From: a virus | Taxonomy: Duplodnaviria > Caudoviricetes | Length of the DNA: 64,000 nucleotides | IMG/VR virus record: IMGVR_UViG_3300022309_000005 | Span: 8,806-72,805 of that record | Reading direction: 5' to 3' (one strand) | Shown here: positions 4,142 to 42,220 of the stretch, one piece after another | How positions within the stretch are numbered: the first letter of the stretch is position 1 | Layout: every line of letters starts with the position of its first letter | Program-made: the position numbers and the translations under genes | The notes under the pieces: generated by a model | Databases searched by the model: none | What the model saw: the letters and a program-made list of their open reading frames with translations, nothing else | Told to the model about the DNA's origin: nothing

Positions 4142-4500
4142 GCGCCCCCAAGCCGTCCTTCACCACGGATCTCCAACAGGCCATCGAGGCTTCGCTCCTG
4201 TCCCTGGTCCGCAAGGGCGACTGGCTCGTACTCGACTACCAGCGGCGCGTCCAGGTCCCGGTCGAGCGCCTTCGGGAGATCTACGAGGCCATCGACTTCG
4301 AGCGCGTCAAGGCGCTGTGCATCGAGCGAGCAGAGGAACGAATCGCCGACGCCTACATGAACGCGATGGCGACGGAGATCGCCACGGACGTGAAGCACAT
4401 CCTCAGCAACCGCGAGCTGCGCGAAGACCTGCGCTCCATCATCCGCGCCAAGATCAAGGCAGCGGCGGCGGCAGTCACGAAGGACGGAGGTGCAGCTTGA
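4138..4500 (+). CDS. Hypothetical protein (GTG start)
   Basis: GTGA overlap with GGAGG SD; ordinary protein composition. Confidence 0.7.
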   Translation: MSAPKPSFTTDLQQAIEASLLSLVRKGDWLVLDYQRRVQVPVERLREIYEAIDFERVKALCIERAEERIADAYMNAMATEIATDVKHILSNRELREDLRSIIRAKIKAAAAAVTKDGGAA

Positions 4501-4769
4501 GCGGGTTGAGAGACAAGCCGGCGTATCCCGGCATCGAGACCATCCAGGGCGAGGTGTCAACCATGCATTTCGGCACGCCCGGGATGACGTACCGGGAGGC
4601 GGCGGCGCTCCACATCATGGCGGGGTTCGCCAGCGACCCGGACTGGACCAATCGCAGAACGTCACAGGCCACCAACGCCAGCGCGCTGGCCGTCGAGTGG
4701 GCGGACGCGCTGATCTCCGCGCTCGAAGCCCCGGACGCGACCACGCCGAAGGAGGCCCCCACGCCTTGA
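4497..4769 (+). CDS. Conserved small phage protein (TTG start), homolog of 40291-40557
   Basis: GMTYREAAALHIMAG...LAVEWADALI motif. Confidence 0.78.
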   Translation: MSGLRDKPAYPGIETIQGEVSTMHFGTPGMTYREAAALHIMAGFASDPDWTNRRTSQATNASALAVEWADALISALEAPDATTPKEAPTP

Positions 4770-4980
4770 CCTTGGGCTGCATTCCGCGGCCCCGCGCCAC
4801 TGGCCAGTATCCCCCGGCTGCCCGGTGGCGTGTCTTTCGCGCGGCGAGTCGGCGACCCCAACCGGCTCGCATGATGGCAGGGACCACACCGGAACCCCGG
4901 CCATCATCACCGCTCGGCCGGACCTGTCCCTTCTCCGCTCCTCGGGGCAGGCCGGCCGGCGGGGGCGCCATCGGGTGAGG

Positions 4981-5010
4981 TTGATGGGCGAGCGGTGGGC
5001 GTGGTAGGGT
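4981..5010 (+). promoter_or_regulatory. Sigma70-type promoter TTGATG-N18-TAGGGT with extended -10 TG
   Basis: Conserved at 41032-41061; no credible ORF downstream. Confidence 0.55.
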
Positions 5011-5016
5011 GCTGGC

Positions 5017-5310
5017 GTTTCCTCGCTGAGCGGCGCGCAGTAGGCGCGCGGGACGAGCGAATCCTCCCGCCGTCGCACCGCTTGGGCTGACTGGCTGCGG
5101 CGAACAGCCAGACACGTCGGCCCCGGTCATCCCTCGCGGGACAGCCGGGGCCGAGTAGTCTGTGGGAGGTGGCGTCCAGGCCGGCCCCGTCGAGCACCCT
5201 GGCCGGCGCGATGTGAAAGTCGCGCCGGAGGGGATCCCCGGGCCAGCGTCCAGGGGTAGCGGATCAGCCGGTGGCGAGGACGGCGGCCCGGGGCCGAGAG
5301 GCTCCGGGCC
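5017..5310 (+). ncRNA. Candidate structured ncRNA locus of phage A
   Basis: Stacked hairpins 5033-5049, 5091-5111, 5117-5154, 5203-5228, 5286-5309 (GAGA loop); long-range stem 5063-5070/5162-5169; core conserved in B. Confidence 0.55.
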
Positions 5311-5332
5311 GTGGTGTCTGCGCCAGCGCGTT

Positions 5333-5908
5333 CTACCACTCCCCGGACAGCGACAACTGAGGGATCGGCGCGAGCGGCCTGGCGGGGCGAATGAGCGCGG
5401 CGGCCCCGAGGAACAGCGGACCCCAGACCCGGCGCTCGACATGCCCGCCAACCACGAGCGCCCCGGCCGGTGACGCCAGCGACAGCGTCCCCAGGTCCGT
5501 CCCGACGAGTACCCCAACCCGCCAGTCCGGTCGGACGGTGACGATGCGCTCGACGGTCCTGACGGCCTCCACCTTGGCCTTGGCCTTGCTCTCCGCCTTC
5601 AGCTCGACGGTCACCGGCTCGCGCACCTCCTCCCGCACCGTCTCGACGAGCGGCCGGTCTGGGCATGGCGAGCCCGGGGGCGCCGGGAGCTCGCGCGTCA
5701 CCGTCCGGATGCGGACAGGCCCCTCGACGCGCTTCACCACCTCGCGGTCCTGGTACTCAATCCGCTCCTGGACATCCACGATGACCCGCTCTTCGACGCG
5801 CACCGGGGCCGTCCACCGTCCGCCGACGAACGCCAGCGCGCCCACCGCCACCACCACGAGCGCGCACGCCAGCCGCGCGCGGAGCGCCTCGAGGAACCGA
5901 ACCATCAC
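5333..5908 (-). CDS. Spanin-position protein: N-terminal TM helix, beta-rich C-terminus
   Basis: Directly downstream of endolysin; TM ALVVVAVGALAFVGG; homolog 41648-42220. Confidence 0.65.
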   Translation of the reverse strand: MMVRFLEALRARLACALVVVAVGALAFVGGRWTAPVRVEERVIVDVQERIEYQDREVVKRVEGPVRIRTVTRELPAPPGSPCPDRPLVETVREEVREPVTVELKAESKAKAKVEAVRTVERIVTVRPDWRVGVLVGTDLGTLSLASPAGALVVGGHVERRVWGPLFLGAAALIRPARPLAPIPQLSLSGEW

Positions 5909-7079: not shown

Positions 7080-8168
7080 CTACTGTCTCCCTACGATGTC
7101 AACGTAGAAATTGCGGATGGATGTTGAGAAATTGATAGCGGTTGTGGTTGGTGGACCGCCAATTGTCGTCTGAAGGCCGTAAATCCTAATCTCATTGAAC
7201 GACGCTCCCTGGATTGAGCCGCCGTAGGTTTCGGCCCAACCCATTGCGCCGGTGGCGTATTGAAGCGCGTTGATTGAATGGTTGACGAGATCTGCCATTG
7301 GTCCGGCCAGAATGACCGACACGTAGGCCCCGGCGCCACCAATTGAGACGGATGCGATGTTCATTCCGCCGAGCAGCGAGACTCCTCCGACCCCATCTGT
7401 CTGAATCCTGGCAAAAGCCTTGTGTGTGCTGGCGGGTGTGATTTTGTTGACGATTGCGACATTTGAGTTTGGGTTGGGAACCAACGACATGTCAAGATCG
7501 CCGTTTGACAGCGTGCATGCGTTCTGTCTGACGGCTGCTGTCGCGGCTGTGCCGTTGGCAAGCACGGCGCCAGCGAACCCGGCCCCGCCCGTTGCCTGGA
7601 CGCCAGGCTTGCCCGCTGCGCCAGTGGCCTCGGCGGATGCGCCTTTCAGGTTTTGCGTCGCCTCGACGTTTCCGGTGATGACGAGCCCGGTCGAGGAGAG
7701 CGCGGCCTTCTTCGTCCCGAGGACGGAGAGCCCGAGCACGCCCGCCGCATCCTTGTACATGCCCGTGCCCTGCTCCGCCTTGAAGGTGTAGCTTGGAGTG
7801 GCGGCGAGCCCGTTCGGAGCCCAATACCCATCGGCGGAGTCAACGTTCCCTTCGTTGGTGCTGATCCCGACTCCGGCGATCTTCAGCTTCAGCTCTCCCG
7901 CAACGGCGACGCCGATCTCGTTCGCCGCAATCCGATACATGCCGGTGTCCGGATCGAGCCCGAAGGCAAGTCCGGGCGCGGCCTCTGTGCCATCGACGAT
8001 CTTCAGCGAGGCCAGCATCCCGCCCTGCCCGCTCCTGGACAGCGAATCGGTCAACGCCGTGGCGATGTCCGAAAGCGTCTGGTTCGCCCAGGTGGGCGTG
8101 ATGGTCGTCCCATCGACAACCGGGTTGCCGGCCGGAAGTGTGTAGGTGCCGCTCGGGTTGCGCGCCAT
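7080..8168 (-). CDS. Tail fibre / receptor-binding protein
   Basis: Conserved N-terminal MARNPSGTYTLPAGNPVV anchor, Gly-rich repeats, divergent lower-GC C-terminus. Confidence 0.82.
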   Translation of the reverse strand: MARNPSGTYTLPAGNPVVDGTTITPTWANQTLSDIATALTDSLSRSGQGGMLASLKIVDGTEAAPGLAFGLDPDTGMYRIAANEIGVAVAGELKLKIAGVGISTNEGNVDSADGYWAPNGLAATPSYTFKAEQGTGMYKDAAGVLGLSVLGTKKAALSSTGLVITGNVEATQNLKGASAEATGAAGKPGVQATGGAGFAGAVLANGTAATAAVRQNACTLSNGDLDMSLVPNPNSNVAIVNKITPASTHKAFARIQTDGVGGVSLLGGMNIASVSIGGAGAYVSVILAGPMADLVNHSINALQYATGAMGWAETYGGSIQGASFNEIRIYGLQTTIGGPPTTTAINFSTSIRNFYVDIVGRQ

Positions 8169-8179
8169 GGTGTCGTCTC

Positions 8180-9934
8180 CTATCTCACGTTCCGGAGCGC
8201 CTCGGCAAGACGCCGCCGCCTGCGCCTCTCCTCGGGCTCACGCGGAGTCTCCTCCGGCTCCATCGCCAGCGCCCGCGCCATCGCCGAGCCCAGACCCGCC
8301 CCGGTCGCCATGCGCTCGGCGACGGGCGTCATGGCCGCCAGCCTCGACGCGCCGAAGAGCGCCCGCGCGGCCGGATCTGCCACGCCAGCGGCCCAGGTCG
8401 AAGGGCCGCGACCTCGGGCGATGTTGAGCGCGGCTCGCCCGAACAGCGGGGCCGGGCTCCCTGTGGTGGTGGCCGCGGTCATCTCCAGCACGCCCGGCCC
8501 CATCCCGCGCCTGGAGGCCGCGGCAACGCCGCGCTCGGCCGCCTCGGACGCCTGGATCAGCCTGCCGAGCCGCTGCTTCGTCGGGATGAAGCTCTCCGCC
8601 GCCTCGACGACCTCTGGGGTGGCGGTTGGGCTGGATGCGGCTTCCATGATCGCCCGCTCGTTCGCCTCGCGCATCATGGAGGCGATCTCCTTGCGCGCTT
8701 CGTTGATCGCCTTGCTGTCGATCACCTCGTAGGCAACAGGCTCCTGGAGGCTGCGCTTCAGGCTCTCCGCCTGGCCCAACCCAAGCCTACCACGGCGCCC
8801 GAGCCCGGCCTGCTGACCGAGCCGCGCCTTCTCAACCGCCTGTTCGCCAGCCCGGACATACAGCTCGGGGACGGCTTCGATCATCGTCTGCGGGCGCAAC
8901 TCTGCCGATCTGATGACAAGGTCTCGCGCCAGGATCCGTGCGTCTGGACCCTGGACGCCTGCCCGCTCGAGCGCATCGATGATCTCGCCGTAGGTCGCGC
9001 CCACGGCCTCCCGCTTGCTGGTGAGCCGCTCGAGCGCGCCCTGCGTCGTCCCGAACGGAACGATTCCGCCTTCGCGGATGGCGGCAAGGGCTACCTCGTC
9101 GGGGATCTTCCGAACGCCGCCACGAAGCTGATCCGCCCCGCCCAGCAGCGTCCGCAAGCCCCACTTCGCCGCCGACTTCTCCGCCGCACGGCCGGCCGCC
9201 CGAAGCGCCGCCGGGGCCGCCTTCCCGAGCGCAGCGCCGGCCAGACCTCCGGCGGTCCCGAGCGCCGCGCCGCGGCCGACCTCACGCAGGGCCTCCGGAC
9301 TGCCCGGGGGCTCCGCGCTCGCGCCCAGGCCGGCCAAGCCCCCGGCGCCGCCCGCCGAAACCAGGAGGCGAGCGGCGTTCGCCGCCGGCGTCCCGCCCAT
9401 GCCGGGCTGGGCGCCGGGGAGGAGCGCGGTGGCGAGCGAGCCCGCCAGCTCGCCGGCCATGTACTCCTGCGGGCGCTGCTTCTGGGCCTGGACGAGTTCC
9501 GTCCGCATCCGGTCCCGGAGCTGCTCGTAGGCGAGCGGATCGTCCCGGACCGCCGCGAGTTGCTGGGCGAGGGCCTCTTCTTTGATGCGGCGGATCTCCG
9601 GAGTGTCGTCGGGCGATGGAGCGAACTGCGGCCCGAGCGTCACCGGCGGCGGCTGGAGTCCGGCCCCGGTCGCCAGCCCGGCCCCCAGCTCCTCGCCGAA
9701 TCCGAGCGTCCCGCCCTGGGACAGGCCGAGGATCTGGGCGCGGTTCGGCGTGATGGCGCCCGGGTCGTAGCCCCCGGAGAGTCTGACGCCCTGCGCGTAC
9801 GGATCCGGCGTCACGTCCGGCAGGCCCAGGGCCGCGGCCTCGTCCGGGGTGAGCAGGCGTCCGGGCGCGGCGGGCGGCTCGGTGTCCAGGCCCAGCGCCC
9901 GCGCTTCTTCTGCGGAGAGAAGTCGAGGGGGCAT
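8180..9934 (-). CDS. DNA ejection / internal virion protein 3
   Basis: Ala/Gly-rich helical protein in the ejection position; homolog 44508-46259. Confidence 0.7.
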   Translation of the reverse strand: MPPRLLSAEEARALGLDTEPPAAPGRLLTPDEAAALGLPDVTPDPYAQGVRLSGGYDPGAITPNRAQILGLSQGGTLGFGEELGAGLATGAGLQPPPVTLGPQFAPSPDDTPEIRRIKEEALAQQLAAVRDDPLAYEQLRDRMRTELVQAQKQRPQEYMAGELAGSLATALLPGAQPGMGGTPAANAARLLVSAGGAGGLAGLGASAEPPGSPEALREVGRGAALGTAGGLAGAALGKAAPAALRAAGRAAEKSAAKWGLRTLLGGADQLRGGVRKIPDEVALAAIREGGIVPFGTTQGALERLTSKREAVGATYGEIIDALERAGVQGPDARILARDLVIRSAELRPQTMIEAVPELYVRAGEQAVEKARLGQQAGLGRRGRLGLGQAESLKRSLQEPVAYEVIDSKAINEARKEIASMMREANERAIMEAASSPTATPEVVEAAESFIPTKQRLGRLIQASEAAERGVAAASRRGMGPGVLEMTAATTTGSPAPLFGRAALNIARGRGPSTWAAGVADPAARALFGASRLAAMTPVAERMATGAGLGSAMARALAMEPEETPREPEERRRRRRLAEALRNVR

Positions 9935-23872: not shown

Positions 23873-23901
23873 TTGACACCGATTCTTAATCCGCGTATGG
23901 T
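23873..23901 (+). promoter_or_regulatory. Strong sigma70 promoter TTGACA-N17-TATGGT of the early cassette operon
   Basis: Near-consensus; GATT-N3-AATC inverted repeat in spacer; conserved at 60470-60498. Confidence 0.85.
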
Positions 23902-24167: not shown

Positions 24168-24187
24168 CCCGCCGGTCCGCCGGCCCT

Positions 24188-24240
24188 CTCGCCGCCCGAG
24201 ACGTAGGGGGCGCCCGGTTCGAGACCGGGAGGCGAGTTCA
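24188..24240 (+). ncRNA. tRNA-like element (acceptor stem, D-like hairpin, T-arm, no anticodon arm)
   Basis: CTCGCC/GGCGAG, GCCC/GGGC, CCCGG-TTCGAGA-CCGGG, 3' TTCA; conserved at 60827-60878. Confidence 0.6.
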
Positions 24241-24254
24241 CGAAGCGAGGAGGG

Positions 24255-24626
24255 ATGAGCATGACGAAGACGACCACGAACAGCCCCACGCCTGGACCGT
24301 GGGTGTTCAAGAAGCTGAGCGATGTTGACCAGATCCGCCGGGTCATCCGAGGCAACGGCGATACGATCAACGTGGCGGCTCAATCCCAATGGTTCGACAG
24401 CTCGACGCCAGAGGCGGAGGCCGACGCGAATTGGCAGCTCATGGCGTCGGCGCAGCAGCAGGCGGAAGCGCTGAAGTCCATCTTGCAGCGCGCCGAGGGG
24501 CTCCGCAACGCTCTGGCGCTGGTCTGCGGCTCCGGCGCGGTGCCGGCGAAGTTGAGGCGCCCGCTGGAGGCGGTGGCCGGCGAGGTCGAGGAGATTCGGG
24601 CGACGGCCGAGAAGGCGCTCGGGTAG
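24255..24626 (+). CDS. Early cassette ORF, slot 2 (TPGPW...ANWQLMASA phage family)
   Basis: GGAGGG SD; TPGPW motif. Confidence 0.78.
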   Translation: MSMTKTTTNSPTPGPWVFKKLSDVDQIRRVIRGNGDTINVAAQSQWFDSSTPEAEADANWQLMASAQQQAEALKSILQRAEGLRNALALVCGSGAVPAKLRRPLEAVAGEVEEIRATAEKALG

Positions 24627-24666
24627 CCCCTCCCCGGCCGCTGACGCCGGGGGACAGGAGACGAAC

Positions 24667-24831
24667 TTGAAGACCGAGAACGACGCGGATCTTTGGGCGC
24701 AGTGGCTAGCGCACGGCAGGGGCGGAACGTGCGCGGCATGCGAGCGCGCGGCGCGGGCGATGGACTACCGTGGGTGCTGCACGGAATGGGTGGCGAAGTT
24801 CGAGGCGGCCGGAGCTGGTCCGCGCTGCTGA
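24667..24831 (+). CDS. 54-aa Cys-rich early ORF (TTG start, not in ORF track)
   Basis: AGGAG SD; MKTENDADLWAQW...CAACE...GCCTEW. Confidence 0.55.
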   Translation: MKTENDADLWAQWLAHGRGGTCAACERAARAMDYRGCCTEWVAKFEAAGAGPRC

Positions 24832-24909
24832 GCTGACCCGTTCGTCCGGCCGGGTGACGCCGGACCACCACGCCAGCACATCGCCCGGTGGCGCGGGCCT
24901 GGAGAAGCG

Positions 24910-25290
24910 ATGAACTACCTGAACTGCACGCCGCACGCTGTTGTCATCTACGACGCCGATGGCAAGAACATCCTCGCGACGATCCCGCCGAGCCAGTGGA
25001 CGATCCGCGTCCAGACCCCGCCCCAGCGCCTGGTCCGGACGGTCGAGATCGAGGGCGTGAGTGTGCCCGTCGTCTCGGCCCAGGACTTCGAGACCGGCGA
25101 GGTGACCGGCGTCCCGCCCTGTGACGAGTTCGAGCAGGGGCGCACGGCCCTGATCGTGGGCGTCATCGGCGCCGAGGCCGTGGACAGCCTCTGGAACGGC
25201 CCCGTGTACGTTACGGACACCGGGCCGGAGTCCGCGGTGCGCGACTTGAGCGGGCGGATCCTTGGGGTGCGGCGGTTGCAGCTCCCGTAG
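24910..25290 (+). CDS. NxTPH-family protein, candidate Crn4-like ring nuclease (anti-CRISPR type III)
   Basis: N-terminal NCTPH and C-terminal RDxxGRIxG motifs; the link to Crn4 is from memory. Confidence 0.5.
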   Translation: MNYLNCTPHAVVIYDADGKNILATIPPSQWTIRVQTPPQRLVRTVEIEGVSVPVVSAQDFETGEVTGVPPCDEFEQGRTALIVGVIGAEAVDSLWNGPVYVTDTGPESAVRDLSGRILGVRRLQLP

Positions 25291-25310
25291 CTGGGGCGGG
25301 GTCGCTGGAC

Positions 25311-25363
25311 GGGCGGCACCGTGCCGCCCGAGACGCCCCCGGGAGGGGGCAGGAGATCGAGAC
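25311..25363 (+). repeat. Double-hairpin spacer; 3' part resembles a solitary type I-C CRISPR repeat
   Basis: GGGCGGC-N5-GCCGCCC then GAC-GCCCCC-GGGA-GGGGGC-AGGAGATCGAGAC; recurs at 61415-61466. Confidence 0.5.
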
Positions 25364-25364
25364 G

Positions 25365-25835
25365 ATGACCATCCCCGCCACAGCAGCCCGCGAAGCGGTG
25401 CTGGCGATTCACCGGCGCATGGCCGCGGCCCTGGACGCTGTCAGAGATTCGGCGCTCGAGGAGCTGATGCCCAGCGCAGCCGCGCCACCGCCGCCCCCAT
25501 TAGAGGGGCCGGGGCTGGCGCAGGCGGCTGCGCCCATGCTGGATCGGCTCTCGGAAATCGAACTCACCGCGAGCGCTCCCGTGGTGCCCGATGCCCTCAT
25601 GGTGCCCATGCCAGTCGGGCAACTGCGCGCCCTCCGACGCGCACTCTCCGCAGAGGATGAACGGGCGCGGAAGGATCGCGCACTTCGCGAGCGGTGGATC
25701 GGTCAGCTCGTGCTGGCGCGCGCAGAACTGGTGTTCGTGAGCCAGGAGGAGGCGGTCCGCCGCGCCCGGGGGCGCATTCACACGGTGGCGTGCGAGCTGA
25801 TCGACGGGACCTCCGAGCTGGGGTCCACGCCATGA
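25365..25835 (+). CDS. Early protein, C-terminal part homologous to 61939-62487
   Basis: Shared EGPGLA...RKDRALRERW...AVRRARGRIH. Confidence 0.75.
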   Translation: MTIPATAAREAVLAIHRRMAAALDAVRDSALEELMPSAAAPPPPPLEGPGLAQAAAPMLDRLSEIELTASAPVVPDALMVPMPVGQLRALRRALSAEDERARKDRALRERWIGQLVLARAELVFVSQEEAVRRARGRIHTVACELIDGTSELGSTP

Positions 25836-26134
25836 CCGCGCCCGCCCTCGGAAGCCGCATCCGCCGCGCCCGCGAGGCCGCCGGCATGGGCCTGCGGGAG
25901 CTGGCGCGCGCCGCCGGCAAGTCCGCCGCGTGGCTGTCGCGGCTGGAGCGCGGCGAGAACATGGGGGCCAGCGTGCGCACGATCCAGACGTTCGCCCGGC
26001 TGCTGCGGATCGACCCGGACGCGCTCCTGCTCGCCGCCGGGAAGGTCCCGCCGGACGTGCTCCGGCGCCTCCAGGACAACCCTGGCCTGTGTGAGATGGT
26101 CCGGCTCTGGGCCGACAAGGAGAAGACACGATGA
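25832..26134 (+). CDS. XRE/Cro-C1-type HTH transcriptional regulator
   Basis: LGSRIRRAREAAGMGLRELARAAGKSAAWLSRLERG. Confidence 0.9.
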   Translation: MTAPALGSRIRRAREAAGMGLRELARAAGKSAAWLSRLERGENMGASVRTIQTFARLLRIDPDALLLAAGKVPPDVLRRLQDNPGLCEMVRLWADKEKTR

Positions 26135-34606: not shown

Positions 34607-35265
34607 TGGCGGAACGCCCGAAGCCGGTTGACTGCCGGGAGTGCGTCCATGTCCGTAACGTCGTGGACGGGGTGTCCACTGAGTGCGCCACGGCCGGGGC
34701 CGGTTATCCGCCGCTCAGGTGGGCCGAGTCTACGTCCGGCAAGTGCGTCTCCTTCGAGCCCAAGCCCGCCCCCGCATCCCCGCCAGCGAGCGCGGACCGG
34801 GAGGGGGCGCCCGCTATCGCCCCTACGGCCGAGAACATCCGAAAGCTCGTGATCAACGTCGAGACGTTGAATCGCGGTTACATCGAGATGCGCCAATGCG
34901 CCAAGGACCTATGCGGATCGCTTCAGTGTCTATTCGAGGCGACCATGGCCCTTGCGCCCTACCCTCCTGAGATCGCGGAAGGTGTGCTCGCCGTTGTCGG
35001 CGTCGCCCGATCCACGCTTGAAGAGGCGAGGCGACAGGATCCAGCGCTCTTCAAGGAGGCCCGGAGGGCGCGGCCGGCCGGCGACCCGAGGGACGCGCTC
35101 CTGCGGCGGTGCGCGACGGACTTCGCGCGGGTGCGCGATTGCGAGCCCGACCTGGACGCCCACTTGGACATGCGCAGGATCGCCAGCGGCGCGCTCGAGG
35201 CCCTCCGCGTCGCCGGAGTGGAGCCGGCCCCCGAGGCGGCGCAGGAAGGGAAGGCGAGCCGATGA
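34606..35265 (+). CDS. Hypothetical protein with N-terminal Cys cluster
   Basis: TGATG coupling; CRECVH. Confidence 0.65.
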   Translation: MAERPKPVDCRECVHVRNVVDGVSTECATAGAGYPPLRWAESTSGKCVSFEPKPAPASPPASADREGAPAIAPTAENIRKLVINVETLNRGYIEMRQCAKDLCGSLQCLFEATMALAPYPPEIAEGVLAVVGVARSTLEEARRQDPALFKEARRARPAGDPRDALLRRCATDFARVRDCEPDLDAHLDMRRIASGALEALRVAGVEPAPEAAQEGKASR

Positions 35266-35576
35266 CGCCCCCGCCGGACTGGCTGGAGGCGGCGCGGCCC
35301 ATCCTGGAGTCGATCGGATGGAGGGGCTACGGAGAGCTGTCGGATCACTTCTACTGCGAATTCTGCGGGGCCTCCTCGCTCGCGTCCGATGAAGTCCCGC
35401 ACGCCGAGGACTGCGCGGTCCTGGCCTTCCGCCGCGCCATCGCCCACGAGGAGGGGCTTCGGGCCAACGCGCGGATCCGGACGGATCCGCTCCTGCCAGT
35501 GGCGCGGACGCACGACGTGCATGGGGTGAGGCGGACGGGGTGCGTGGCGGAGCAGGAAGACGAATTGGAGGAGTGA
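35262..35576 (+). CDS. Zinc-binding hypothetical protein
   Basis: CEFCG...HAEDC; homolog at 1-93. Confidence 0.7.
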   Translation: MTPPPDWLEAARPILESIGWRGYGELSDHFYCEFCGASSLASDEVPHAEDCAVLAFRRAIAHEEGLRANARIRTDPLLPVARTHDVHGVRRTGCVAEQEDELEE

Positions 35577-40583: not shown

Positions 40584-40850
40584 ATGCCGAAGTTCAGGAA
40601 GAAGCCGGTCGTCATCGAGGCGGTCCAGTACAACGACGGGGAGCAGCCCGAAGAGTTGGCCGCGGACGCAGCAGCCGGCCGGGTGGACTACGGCGACGAC
40701 GGGCTGATGAGAATCGAGACGCTCGAAGGACGGATGATCGCGCAGCCCGGTGACTGGATCATCCGGGGCGTCAAGGGCGAGCTGTACCCGTGCAAGCCCG
40801 ACATCTTCGCCGCGACGTACGAGCCGGCAGAGGAGGTCCCCACGCCTTGA
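40584..40850 (+). CDS. PGDYG/PGDW-type small phage protein
   Basis: FRKKPVVIEAVQ...TLEG...PGDWIIRGVKGELYPCKPDIFAATYE. Confidence 0.85.
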   Translation: MPKFRKKPVVIEAVQYNDGEQPEELAADAAAGRVDYGDDGLMRIETLEGRMIAQPGDWIIRGVKGELYPCKPDIFAATYEPAEEVPTP

Positions 40851-41031
40851 CCTTGGGCCGCATGCCGCGGCTCCGCGCCCCTGGGCAGTATCCCCTGGCT
40901 GCCCGGTGGCGTGTCTTTCGCGCGGCCCGAGCGTCCCCCAGCGCTCGAGCCGAAGTCGTGCCCGCCAGGCCGGACCTGTCCCTTCTCCGCTCCTCGGGGC
41001 AGGCCGGCCGGCGGGGCGCCATCGGTGGAGG

Positions 41032-41647
41032 TTGATGGGCGAGTGGTGGGCGTGGTAGGGTGCTGGCGTTTCCTCGCTGAGCGGCGCGCAGTAGGCGCGC
41101 GGGACGAGTTAATCCTCCCGCCGTCGCGCCGCTTGGGCTGACTGGCTGCGGCGAACAGCCAGACACGTCGGCCCCGGTCATCCCTCGCGGGACAGCCGGG
41201 GCCGAGTAGTCTGTGGGACATGGCGTCCCGGCCGGCCCCGTGGTAGGGTTCTGGCGCGATGTCGGGGTGAGCAGGCCCCGCGTGCCGAGGCCGCCTCCTA
41301 CCCCCTCCGGAGGCGGCCTCACCTTTTGCGGTCCGGCCGGCGCGTGGTAGGGTGGCGTTTTCCGGGGAGGCTCCCGCCTACGGCGGGGCGTCGGTTGGGC
41401 TCGCGAGGGCGCCGATGCGACCGTCACGGCGCGGACCAGCAGCATCCGCCCGCGTCGTGCAGTGCCACGTGGGCGGGAGCGCTCCCCATCTTGCGGTCCA
41501 GCCGGTCCCATCGAGCACCTCTGCCCGGGCTGTACGACCCCGGGGAGGATCCCCGGGCCAGCGTCCAGGGGTAGCGGATCAGCCGGTGGCGAGGACGGCG
41601 GCCCGGGGTCGAGAGGCTCCGGGCCGTGGTGTCTGCCCCGGCGCGTC
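41032..41647 (+). ncRNA. Candidate structured ncRNA locus of phage B with three promoter-like modules
   Basis: CGTGGTAGGGT at about 41051, 41239, 41343; many hairpins; core shared with 4981-5330. Confidence 0.55.
41287..41327 (+). terminator. Intrinsic terminator-like hairpin (12-bp stem, C-rich loop, T-tract)
   Basis: GAGGCCGCCTCC-TACCCCCTCC-GGAGGCGGCCTC-ACCTTTT. Confidence 0.65.
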
Positions 41648-42220
41648 CTACCGCTCCCAGGACAGCGACAGCCCCACGGCGGGCGCCAGGGGCCGCGCGA
41701 CGGGCACCAGGGCGAACACCCCGAGGCTCAGGGGCCCCAGGACGCGCCGCTCAACGTGCGCCCCCGCGGCGAGCGCCTGGATGGGCTGCGCCAGCGACAG
41801 CGCCCCCAGGTCCGCCCCGACGAGTACCCCGGCCCGCCAGTCCGGGCGGACGGTGACGATGCGCTCGACGGTCCGGACGGCCTCCACCTGGGCCTTGGCC
41901 TCGCTCTCCACCTTTCGCTCGACGGTCACAGGCTCGCGCACCTCCTCCCGGACCGTCTCGACGAGCGGCCGGTCTGGGCAGGGAGAGCCCGGGGGCGCCG
42001 GGAGCTCGCGCGTCACCGTCCGGATGCGGACCGGCCCCTCGACGCGCTTCACCACCTCGCGGTCCTGGTACTCGATCCGCTCCTGGACATCCACGATGAC
42101 CCGCTCCTCGACGCGCACCGGGGCCGTCCACCGCCCGCCGACGAACGCCAGCGCGCCCACCGCCACCACCACGAGCGCGCACCGGCCGTGCGCCCGAGCG
42201 GACTCCAGGAGCCGGCCCAT
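41648..42220 (-). CDS. Spanin-position protein (B)
   Basis: Homolog of 5333-5908. Confidence 0.65.
   Translation of the reverse strand: MGRLLESARAHGRCALVVVAVGALAFVGGRWTAPVRVEERVIVDVQERIEYQDREVVKRVEGPVRIRTVTRELPAPPGSPCPDRPLVETVREEVREPVTVERKVESEAKAQVEAVRTVERIVTVRPDWRAGVLVGADLGALSLAQPIQALAAGAHVERRVLGPLSLGVFALVPVARPLAPAVGLSLSWER

Follow-up and report, generated by a model that had tools for sequence, protein, structure and literature searches.

A Non-Coding Locus with a Predicted Promoter and Exchangeable Cargo between the Convergent Operons of an Mx8-Like Podovirus

The gap at positions 4770-5332 of a 64,000-nucleotide (nt) stretch of phage DNA (hereafter the window; taken from IMG/VR record IMGVR_UViG_3300022309_000005) and its counterpart at 40851-41647 of the same window, referred to here as gaps A and B, are both non-coding and protein-free. 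We propose, at a probability of about 0.55, that they represent a non-coding hub between convergent early (plus-strand) and late/lysis (minus-strand) operons, in which a predicted promoter would be followed by exchangeable cargo and a terminator tail. An initial annotation of the window had described a large conserved locus of structured non-coding RNA. The absence of proteins, the strong folding, the plus-strand promoter motif, and the lack of a described RNA family all stand; the conserved core does not, since the cargo is exchangeable in relatives. The locus is more interesting in this organization than as a single "large structured RNA."

Results

Exchange of the cargo was seen in metagenome contigs from 4 runs of 4 studies, which were compared with the window over positions 4700-5400. 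These contigs match 4700-5011 and 5179-5319 at 95 to 100% identity, and none of them spans 5012-5178. An alternative cargo that is identical in three of the runs begins directly after base 5011, the first base downstream of the -10 box of the putative promoter P1; a second alternative continuation starts after 5015, and a third, weaker one starts after 5007. Contigs entering the tail at 5179 carry before it, in two runs, the last 16 to 30 nt of the terminator of cassette 2, a cargo unit that gap B has and gap A lacks. Since this terminator is joined directly to 5179, cassette 2 is the last unit in those relatives, joined to a terminal junction repeat (J-end) of the A type. To the left, homology ends at ~4745-4754, in the last codons of the upstream gene and exactly where the likeness between A and B ends. 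To the right, one relative diverges beyond 5319; relatives X2 and X3 keep the tail with 3 changes. The insertion/deletion that distinguishes A from B and the divergence points of the metagenome contigs lie at 5011/5012 and 5178/5179. Because relatives replace 5012-5178, what had looked like a near-identical core is a swappable cassette. The conserved entities are the promoter module (~4750-5011) and the tail (5179-5319), with the cargo, and even the flanking genes, being variable.

Comparison of the two gaps with each other led to the same boundaries. The IMG/VR record is 72,805 bp long (the window corresponds to record bases 8806-72805) and, by self-comparison, consists of two related ~36.3-kb phage units placed head to tail, with aligned blocks that are 78 to 98.6% identical. 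Gaps A and B are orthologous loci, one per unit; given that the record holds two related units, they are the same locus in two phages and not two copies within one genome. Between P1 and the tail, A holds one cargo unit and B holds three unrelated ones. Cargo cassette 1 ("RNA1"; 5012-5178, plus strand) is a non-coding unit of 167 nt with small hairpins and a long hairpin at 5109-5162 that is flanked by CAGAC/GTCTG. Its copy in B (41063-41229, plus strand; big hairpin at 41160-41213) is 96% identical to that in A. The initial annotation had placed a near-identical core of ~155 nt here; the near-identity is real, and its size was underestimated, as the block actually covers 281 nt (4910-5190) at 95.7% identity, with the cargo at 5012-5178 differing at ~6 positions. 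Shared cargo is the simplest explanation for the near-identity of RNA1 in the two gaps. Cargo cassette 2 ("RNA2," ~75 nt; 41222-41335 together with its junction J2, plus strand) has at its end a 12-bp GC stem and then ACCTTTTGCGG, and cargo cassette 3 ("RNA3," ~140 nt; 41324-41496 together with its junction J3, plus strand) is closed by a long outer helix. RNA1, RNA2, and RNA3 are unrelated save for their first few bases and the junction, and they are not paralogues.

The conserved module upstream of the cargo ends in P1, a sigma70-like promoter motif with an extended -10 box (TTGATG at 4981-4986, N18, and TGG-TAGGGT at 5002-5010, plus strand). A promoter had been noted in the locus initially, and the motif is indeed identical in A and B (41032-41061); it is also kept in the 4 metagenome runs up to base 5011. 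The hexamer TAGGGT occurs 6 times on both strands of the window, versus 19 times expected from composition. This locus accounts for 4 of the 6, each of them on the plus strand with GTGG before it, and the GTGGTAGGGT motif is found once in A and three times in B. No TAnnnT hexamer is present on the minus strand of either gap. To judge from this distribution, the promoter motif is not a chance feature. TAnnnT is rare in the phage (110 occurrences on both strands of the 72.8-kb record). A usable -35 box stands beside TAnnnT at 14 sites in the record, P1 among them, and these few sites provide a usable promoter map for the phage. Other sigma70-like sites include a leftward genetic-switch promoter with the same TAGGGT -10 box, a promoter of the early cassette array, and a cluster at 7081-7187. 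The early-array promoter reads TTGACA-N17-TATGGT and is found at 23896 and 60493.

Variants of the promoter motif recur at the cassette junctions, such that A contains one copy plus J-end and B contains three copies plus J-end. J2 (41222-41249, plus strand) reads ATGGCG-N18-TGG-TAGGGT, with its -10 TAGGGT at 41244-41249. J3 (41324-41353, plus strand) reads TTGCGG-N16-TGG-TAGGGT, with its -10 TAGGGT at 41348-41353, and here the 12-bp GC stem and T-run (TTTT) of a canonical terminator overlap the -35 box. The -35 box of J3 is provided by the T-run (TTTTGCGG) with which the preceding terminator ends, at a distance of 16 nt from the -10 box, so that J3 is predicted to be a composite terminator/promoter. 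J-end (5171-5198, plus strand) is like the B junctions in its left half and has GTCGAGCACC where the others have GTGGTAGGGT. Hairpins stand close to these motifs: hairpin H3 ends 24 nt upstream of the P1 -35 box, and the big hairpin of RNA1 ends 9 nt before the J2 repeat. No conserved Shine-Dalgarno sequence with a start codon was found behind any junction. Between H3 and the P1 -35 box lies a 19-nt stretch (4956-4974) that is complementary, at 18 of 19 positions, to the start region of an early plus-strand gene (CCGATGACGCCCCCGCCGG). This start-codon partner lies at record 8647-8665 and window 35259-35277, i.e., in both units, with a BLAST E value of 0.013 within the record. The complementarity may be due to chance in GC-rich DNA, or it may reflect long-range pairing or an antisense site. 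Apart from this one 19-nt match, a search for short complementary targets within the record yielded chance-level matches only.

Both gaps are strongly folded. Fold energies are given in kcal/mol for the plus and then the minus strand, and z-scores refer to dinucleotide shuffles. As a whole, each gap folds far better than its shuffles, and better on the plus strand (z of -6.1 versus -3.9 for A and -5.1 versus -3.5 for B). A terminator scan identified T1 (4794-4839, plus strand; 40875-40920 in B), a putative intrinsic terminator of the early operon consisting of a hairpin and then GTGTCTTTCG, with two U.G pairs that form on the plus strand only (-23.8 and -18.5 in A; -26.1 and -20.5 in B). It is followed by a variable hairpin, H2 (4871-4907, plus strand), whose place in B is taken by another hairpin (40928-40947), in keeping with the initial description of upstream hairpins that differ in sequence and stay constant in position. 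In metagenome variants of H2, T4875C is accompanied by A4903G, converting U-A to C-G, and this is the sole compensatory change seen. H3 (4916-4957, plus strand; 40968-41009 in B by alignment), a conserved hairpin just upstream of P1 with a 13-nt pyrimidine-rich loop, has energies of -31.9 and -28.3; one metagenome variant carries T4927C (U.G to C-G) and has the bulge shifted to the other arm, with the stem kept.

Downstream of the cargo, the conserved tail module (5179-5322, plus strand) is 97% identical between A and B and is made up of a hairpin at 5203-5228 (-21.2 and -18.1 in A), GGGGATCCCC, a hairpin with a GAGA loop at 5285-5310, and then GTGGTGTCTGCG (5311-5322). J-end and the tail of B align at 41491-41637 (plus strand), with GTGGTGTCTGCC after the GAGA hairpin (41600-41625). 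The GAGA hairpin favors the plus strand in both gaps (-32.3 and -24.7 in A; -29.6 and -17.8 in B), and the plus-strand wobble pairs reported for it initially were recovered: a G.U pair forms on that strand, and at position 41609 a change from C to T adds a U.G pair. The tail would be a plus-sense terminator that ends ~10 nt before the stop codon of the late operon.

The cargo hairpins are less uniform in strand preference. The big hairpin of RNA1 has energies of -40.5 and -41.9, and on the minus strand it has a GCGA (GNRA) loop and is followed by GTGTCTGGCTGTTCG; the better minus-strand fold claimed for 5117-5154 is therefore correct, if only slightly. A closing stem that had been placed at 5063/5162 is absent from the minimum-free-energy fold, and B breaks 2 of its 8 pairs (GG to CA at 5168-5169) without compensation. 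The outer helix of RNA3 is more stable on the plus strand (-83.8 and -72.1; z of -2.95 and -1.57). Overall, T1, H3, the tail hairpin, the GAGA hairpin, and RNA3 favor the plus strand in energies and G.U pairs, and the T-runs of the locus are all on the plus strand. Within the 64-kb window, a strong GC hairpin with GTGTCT directly after it is confined to this locus, where it stands at 4830 and 5314 (plus) and 5115 (minus) in A and at 40911 and 41629 (plus) and 41166 (minus) in B; in sequence it looks like a phage-specific intrinsic terminator with a U-poor tail. The changes that preserve hairpins appear to support selection on these structures, which are all of the terminator type, and compensatory or wobble-preserving changes are equally expected of terminators.

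Neither gap carries a coding signal. The GC content by codon position is flat in all six frames of the gaps (0.72 to 0.77), whereas neighboring genes have a third-position GC content (GC3) of 0.90 to 0.96 and a second-position content (GC2) of ~0.5. Open reading frames (ORFs) in the gaps give Arg/Pro/Gly-rich junk translations, and their frames differ between A and B, as the initial annotation had stated. Gap A is bounded by the stop codon of the plus-strand operon (4767-4769) and that of the minus-strand operon (5333-5335), and the stop positions confirm the earlier placement of both gaps between converging operons. In A, the last gene of the plus-strand early/recombination operon (4497-4769, plus strand) has a GC3 of 0.90 and matches phrog_2201; its last ~20 nt already lie within the conserved non-coding module, the homology of A, B, and the relatives beginning at ~4745-4754. 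In B, an additional 88-amino-acid (aa) gene is inserted before the gap (40584-40850, plus strand), with matches to phrog_419 and related families and weak similarity to a nucleotide pyrophosphohydrolase PHROG. Although unrelated to the last gene of A, this gene has the same final codons and stop, since the conserved non-coding module starts inside the coding sequence. On the other side, the minus-strand late/lysis operon ends in a gene for a membrane protein in the spanin position (5333-5908, minus strand; GC3, 0.91), with the lysozyme gene upstream. The last late genes of the two units (5333-5908 and 41648-42220, both minus strand) encode proteins of ~190 to 191 aa with an N-terminal hydrophobic helix and an aromatic C-terminal residue (EW/EF), in the spanin position after lysozyme. 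A family of 18 such proteins was found among 5.8 billion proteins, none of them with a Pfam or PHROG family.

Judged by its genes, the phage is an uncultured Mx8-like podovirus of high GC content (70%) and ~36 kb. In each unit, the minus strand carries terminase, portal, major capsid, amidase, and lysozyme genes, and the plus strand carries the early/recombination operon, including an AAA_24 (Sak4-type) protein. The major capsid protein is 56% identical to that of Myxococcus phage Mx8, the nearest cultured relative; among genome collections, the closest capsid protein (60%) was found on a short contig belonging to a Planctomycetota metagenome-assembled genome. The convergent junction of the Mx8 genome has no comparable gap, and the 706-nt gap before uoi/int in Mx8 is unrelated. 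The record originates from a sediment metagenome, and parts of the stretch recur in 24 public runs, among them soil, estuary, mangrove, and sediment runs. A 126-bp direct repeat is present at the termini of the record (1-126 and 72677-72802). IMG/VR lists the record as linear and 100% complete, and host flanks are absent from it. The two-unit record may be a tandem element or an assembly that merged two co-occurring strains into one circle.

Searches of databases returned no described relative of the locus. An Rfam 15 scan of the window at gathering scores gave 0 matches, and the best subthreshold hits in both gaps (E values of 0.28 to 9) were far below the cutoffs, which agrees with the initial description of the RNAs as undescribed. 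ARAGORN called no tRNA or tmRNA. There was no homologue of the gap by blastn among 50,697 phage records. Short-word searches were negative as well: viral and genome contigs lacked an exact 25-mer from the core, viral and metagenome contigs lacked a 30-mer from the promoter, and viral contigs lacked both a 24-mer from the alternative cargo and a 22-mer from the tail. Searches of genome, viral, and metagenome contigs with the neighboring 191-aa protein, as a single sequence or as a family alignment, retrieved one unrelated 1-kb contig only. No relative locus was reached through the upstream structural protein in viral contigs, and the loci of lysozyme and capsid relatives (≤60% identity) had no similar DNA.

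Discussion

Based on these analyses, a model is proposed in which T1, with its U-tail, H2, and H3 would end and stabilize the early mRNA. P1, following these three hairpins, would act as a host-type sigma70 promoter with an extended -10 box. Behind it would come one or more protein-free cargo units, each running from a promoter to a terminator-like hairpin and parted from the next by a composite terminator/promoter junction. The tail terminator would halt plus-strand transcription ~10 nt short of the late operon and so keep antisense transcription out of the lysis genes. Recombination at the repeated junctions, the conserved promoter, and the tail may swap, add, or remove cargo among related phages. 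The predicted products are small plus-strand RNAs, of ~150 nt from P1 in A, plus units of ~75 nt and ~140 nt in B. From the sequence we infer active promoters, an accumulation of discrete RNAs, and a function that lies in these RNAs and not in the joints alone. The cassettes probably make small RNAs, and we regard the odds that small plus-strand RNA(s) are transcribed from at least the P1 unit as slightly better than even.

Several observations weigh against this proposal. The promoters are consensus matches alone, and sigma70 rules may not be those of the host; the -35 box is poor at J2, and J-end is without a -10 box. Single-cassette folds have modest z-scores (-2 to -3), and no covariation was detected in the cargo, RNA1 being available in two copies with ~6 differences, two of which break a proposed stem. 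The 96% identity of the A and B cores is inside the range of blocks elsewhere in the record (78 to 98.6%), and identity alone thus does not show selection. RNA1 on its own folds relatively better on the minus strand (z of -4.9 versus -2.9 on the plus strand), and since its big hairpin has a minus-strand tail of the GUGUCU type, like two plus-strand terminators, it may serve the late operon. Finally, none of the sequencing runs listed as containing parts of the stretch was an RNA run, an absence that by itself has no bearing on expression.

The locus may alternatively be a terminator zone with recombination scars only, in which partly bidirectional terminators are combined with promoter motifs that serve as joints, and in which the cargo consists of empty or decayed cassettes (leader joined to trailer) without an RNA function of their own. 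We consider this possible, if doubtful. It would account for the fact that every supported structure is a terminator-type hairpin, three of them with the same stem and GUGUCU form, and for the conservation of the joints and not of the cargo. Cassette 2 contains little beyond a small 5' hairpin and a terminator, the same phage has short conserved islands between unrelated genes (at 24168-25846 by self-comparison), and the lack of an Rfam match and of covariation would also be expected. However, RNA1 (167 nt) and RNA3 (~140 nt) are longer and have more elaborate folds than a leader plus terminator, and intact extended -10 promoter motifs are kept at three junctions. That RNA1 is 96% kept in both units and that cassette 2 appears in a new context elsewhere suggest instead that cargo travels intact.

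Another reading, which we find unlikely, is a sense/antisense pair. Late mRNA would run 180 to 220 nt past its stop codon, through the tail, and end at the minus-strand core hairpin (5162 to 5109, with the tail GUGUCUGGCUGUUCG), where it would be opposed by the P1 RNA; interference between the RNAs or the polymerases would then tune expression of the lysis genes or of the cassette. The slightly greater stability of the big hairpin on the minus strand, with its GNRA loop, the better minus-strand z-score of RNA1, and a minus-strand GUGUCU tail that is the same as those at two plus-strand terminators are all consistent with such a pair. Moreover, C.A mismatches weaken the GAGA hairpin in its antisense form, which has no U-tail; it would thus be a poor minus-strand terminator, making read-through from the late operon into the locus plausible. 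RNA1 is absent altogether from relatives, though, and the late operon therefore cannot depend on its hairpin. The minus strand is also without a promoter-like hexamer, and in B a distance of 430 nt separates the hairpin from the late stop codon, with two plus-oriented terminators in between. The big hairpin of RNA1 could still stop late-operon read-through in addition to its place in the proposed plus-strand unit.

Two further readings are very improbable. Many temperate phages have their attachment site between the ends of the late and early operons, which is where this locus lies, and its repeated 25- to 30-nt motif (GGCCGG...GTGGTAGGGT) could in principle provide the core or arm sites of attP or another recombinase target. 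An int/att position had in fact been assigned to it in the initial annotation. That assignment has no basis, as a six-frame search for tyrosine and serine recombinase domains (PF00589 and PF00239) found none in the whole 72.8-kb record, with controls positive in 14/14 and 12/14 genomes. The geometry of the motif is that of a promoter, and the two units differ in how many copies they carry. An int/att locus was rejected on the basis of the recombinase-free record and the lack of any tRNA-like sequence. It is just as improbable that the cassettes encode very small proteins (moron ORFs), although some plus-strand frames of 31 to 45 codons exist and the cargo of promoter-early stem-loops (PeSLs) in T4-type phages offers an analogy. 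Codon-position GC is flat in every frame, in contrast to a GC3 of ≥0.90 in genes of the phage, and no Shine-Dalgarno sequence plus start codon is conserved behind any junction. Small ORFs in the cassettes were rejected on this flat codon-position GC and on junk, Arg/Pro/Gly-rich translations in frames not common to A and B.

The proposed hub has counterparts among known phage elements. Phage morons and phage-borne small RNA (sRNA) genes, such as those carried in the cargo region of Stx phages, are promoter-gene-terminator units; promoter-to-terminator units without a protein gene are known among morons, some of which encode RNA only. The units described here are similarly predicted to be autonomous, running from promoter to terminator between conserved phage modules, and they are present or absent among close relatives. 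They differ in having no sequence or Rfam relation to a described phage sRNA and in being chained by a shared junction repeat. GC-rich hairpins between converging genes, some usable on both strands, are shared with the bidirectional terminators of convergent operons, but the locus extends over 560 to 800 nt with one to three conserved promoter motifs, most of its hairpins are biased to the plus strand by G.U pairs, and its U-tails are on the plus strand.

The architecture of the locus follows the same principle as that of the PeSLs, in which a strong sigma70-like promoter and a terminator stem-loop stand at the borders of variable genes and recombination between PeSLs drives modular shuffling (Arbiol et al. 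2010, PMC2839356; Comeau et al. 2014, PMC4122927). A composite of a predicted sigma70-like promoter and a predicted terminator stem-loop is likewise repeated at cargo borders, and in both systems insertions, deletions, and replacements between related phages begin and end at the motif. Several copies of the motif flank variable cargo, with breakpoints at the motif, and at J3 a predicted terminator is joined directly to a promoter motif. In contrast to PeSLs, which belong to T4-type myoviruses and lie in the early hyperplastic region, this array is found in a high-GC (70%), ~36-kb Mx8-like podovirus, in the gap between converging operons, and its cargo is protein-free, with no Shine-Dalgarno element. 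Since a T4-type hyperplastic region with small, Shine-Dalgarno-led protein genes as its cargo is lacking here, the locus would work like a PeSL array without being a member of the PeSL family.

As a bolder extension of the proposal, the locus may be an integron-like "RNA cassette array," in which a constitutive host-type promoter at a silent end of the phage genome would serve exchangeable small structured RNAs (e.g., decoys or antisense RNAs against host defense or competing phages) that are traded among related soil and sediment phages through recombination at shared terminator/promoter joints; we consider this quite unlikely. A role of the cassettes in counter-defense or host takeover is likewise speculation. 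Should the cassettes not be expressed, the locus would still be a clear case of conserved non-coding joints outlasting the surrounding genes in a mosaic phage genome. If they are expressed, the shuffling of genes at promoter/terminator joints would extend from T4-type phages to a high-GC, Mx8-like podovirus lineage, and the cargo that is traded could be RNA genes and not only small proteins. In that case, at least three undescribed RNAs (RNA1 to RNA3, with at least two further cargo starts in metagenomes) would represent accessory phage RNAs and candidates for functions in host takeover or counter-defense.

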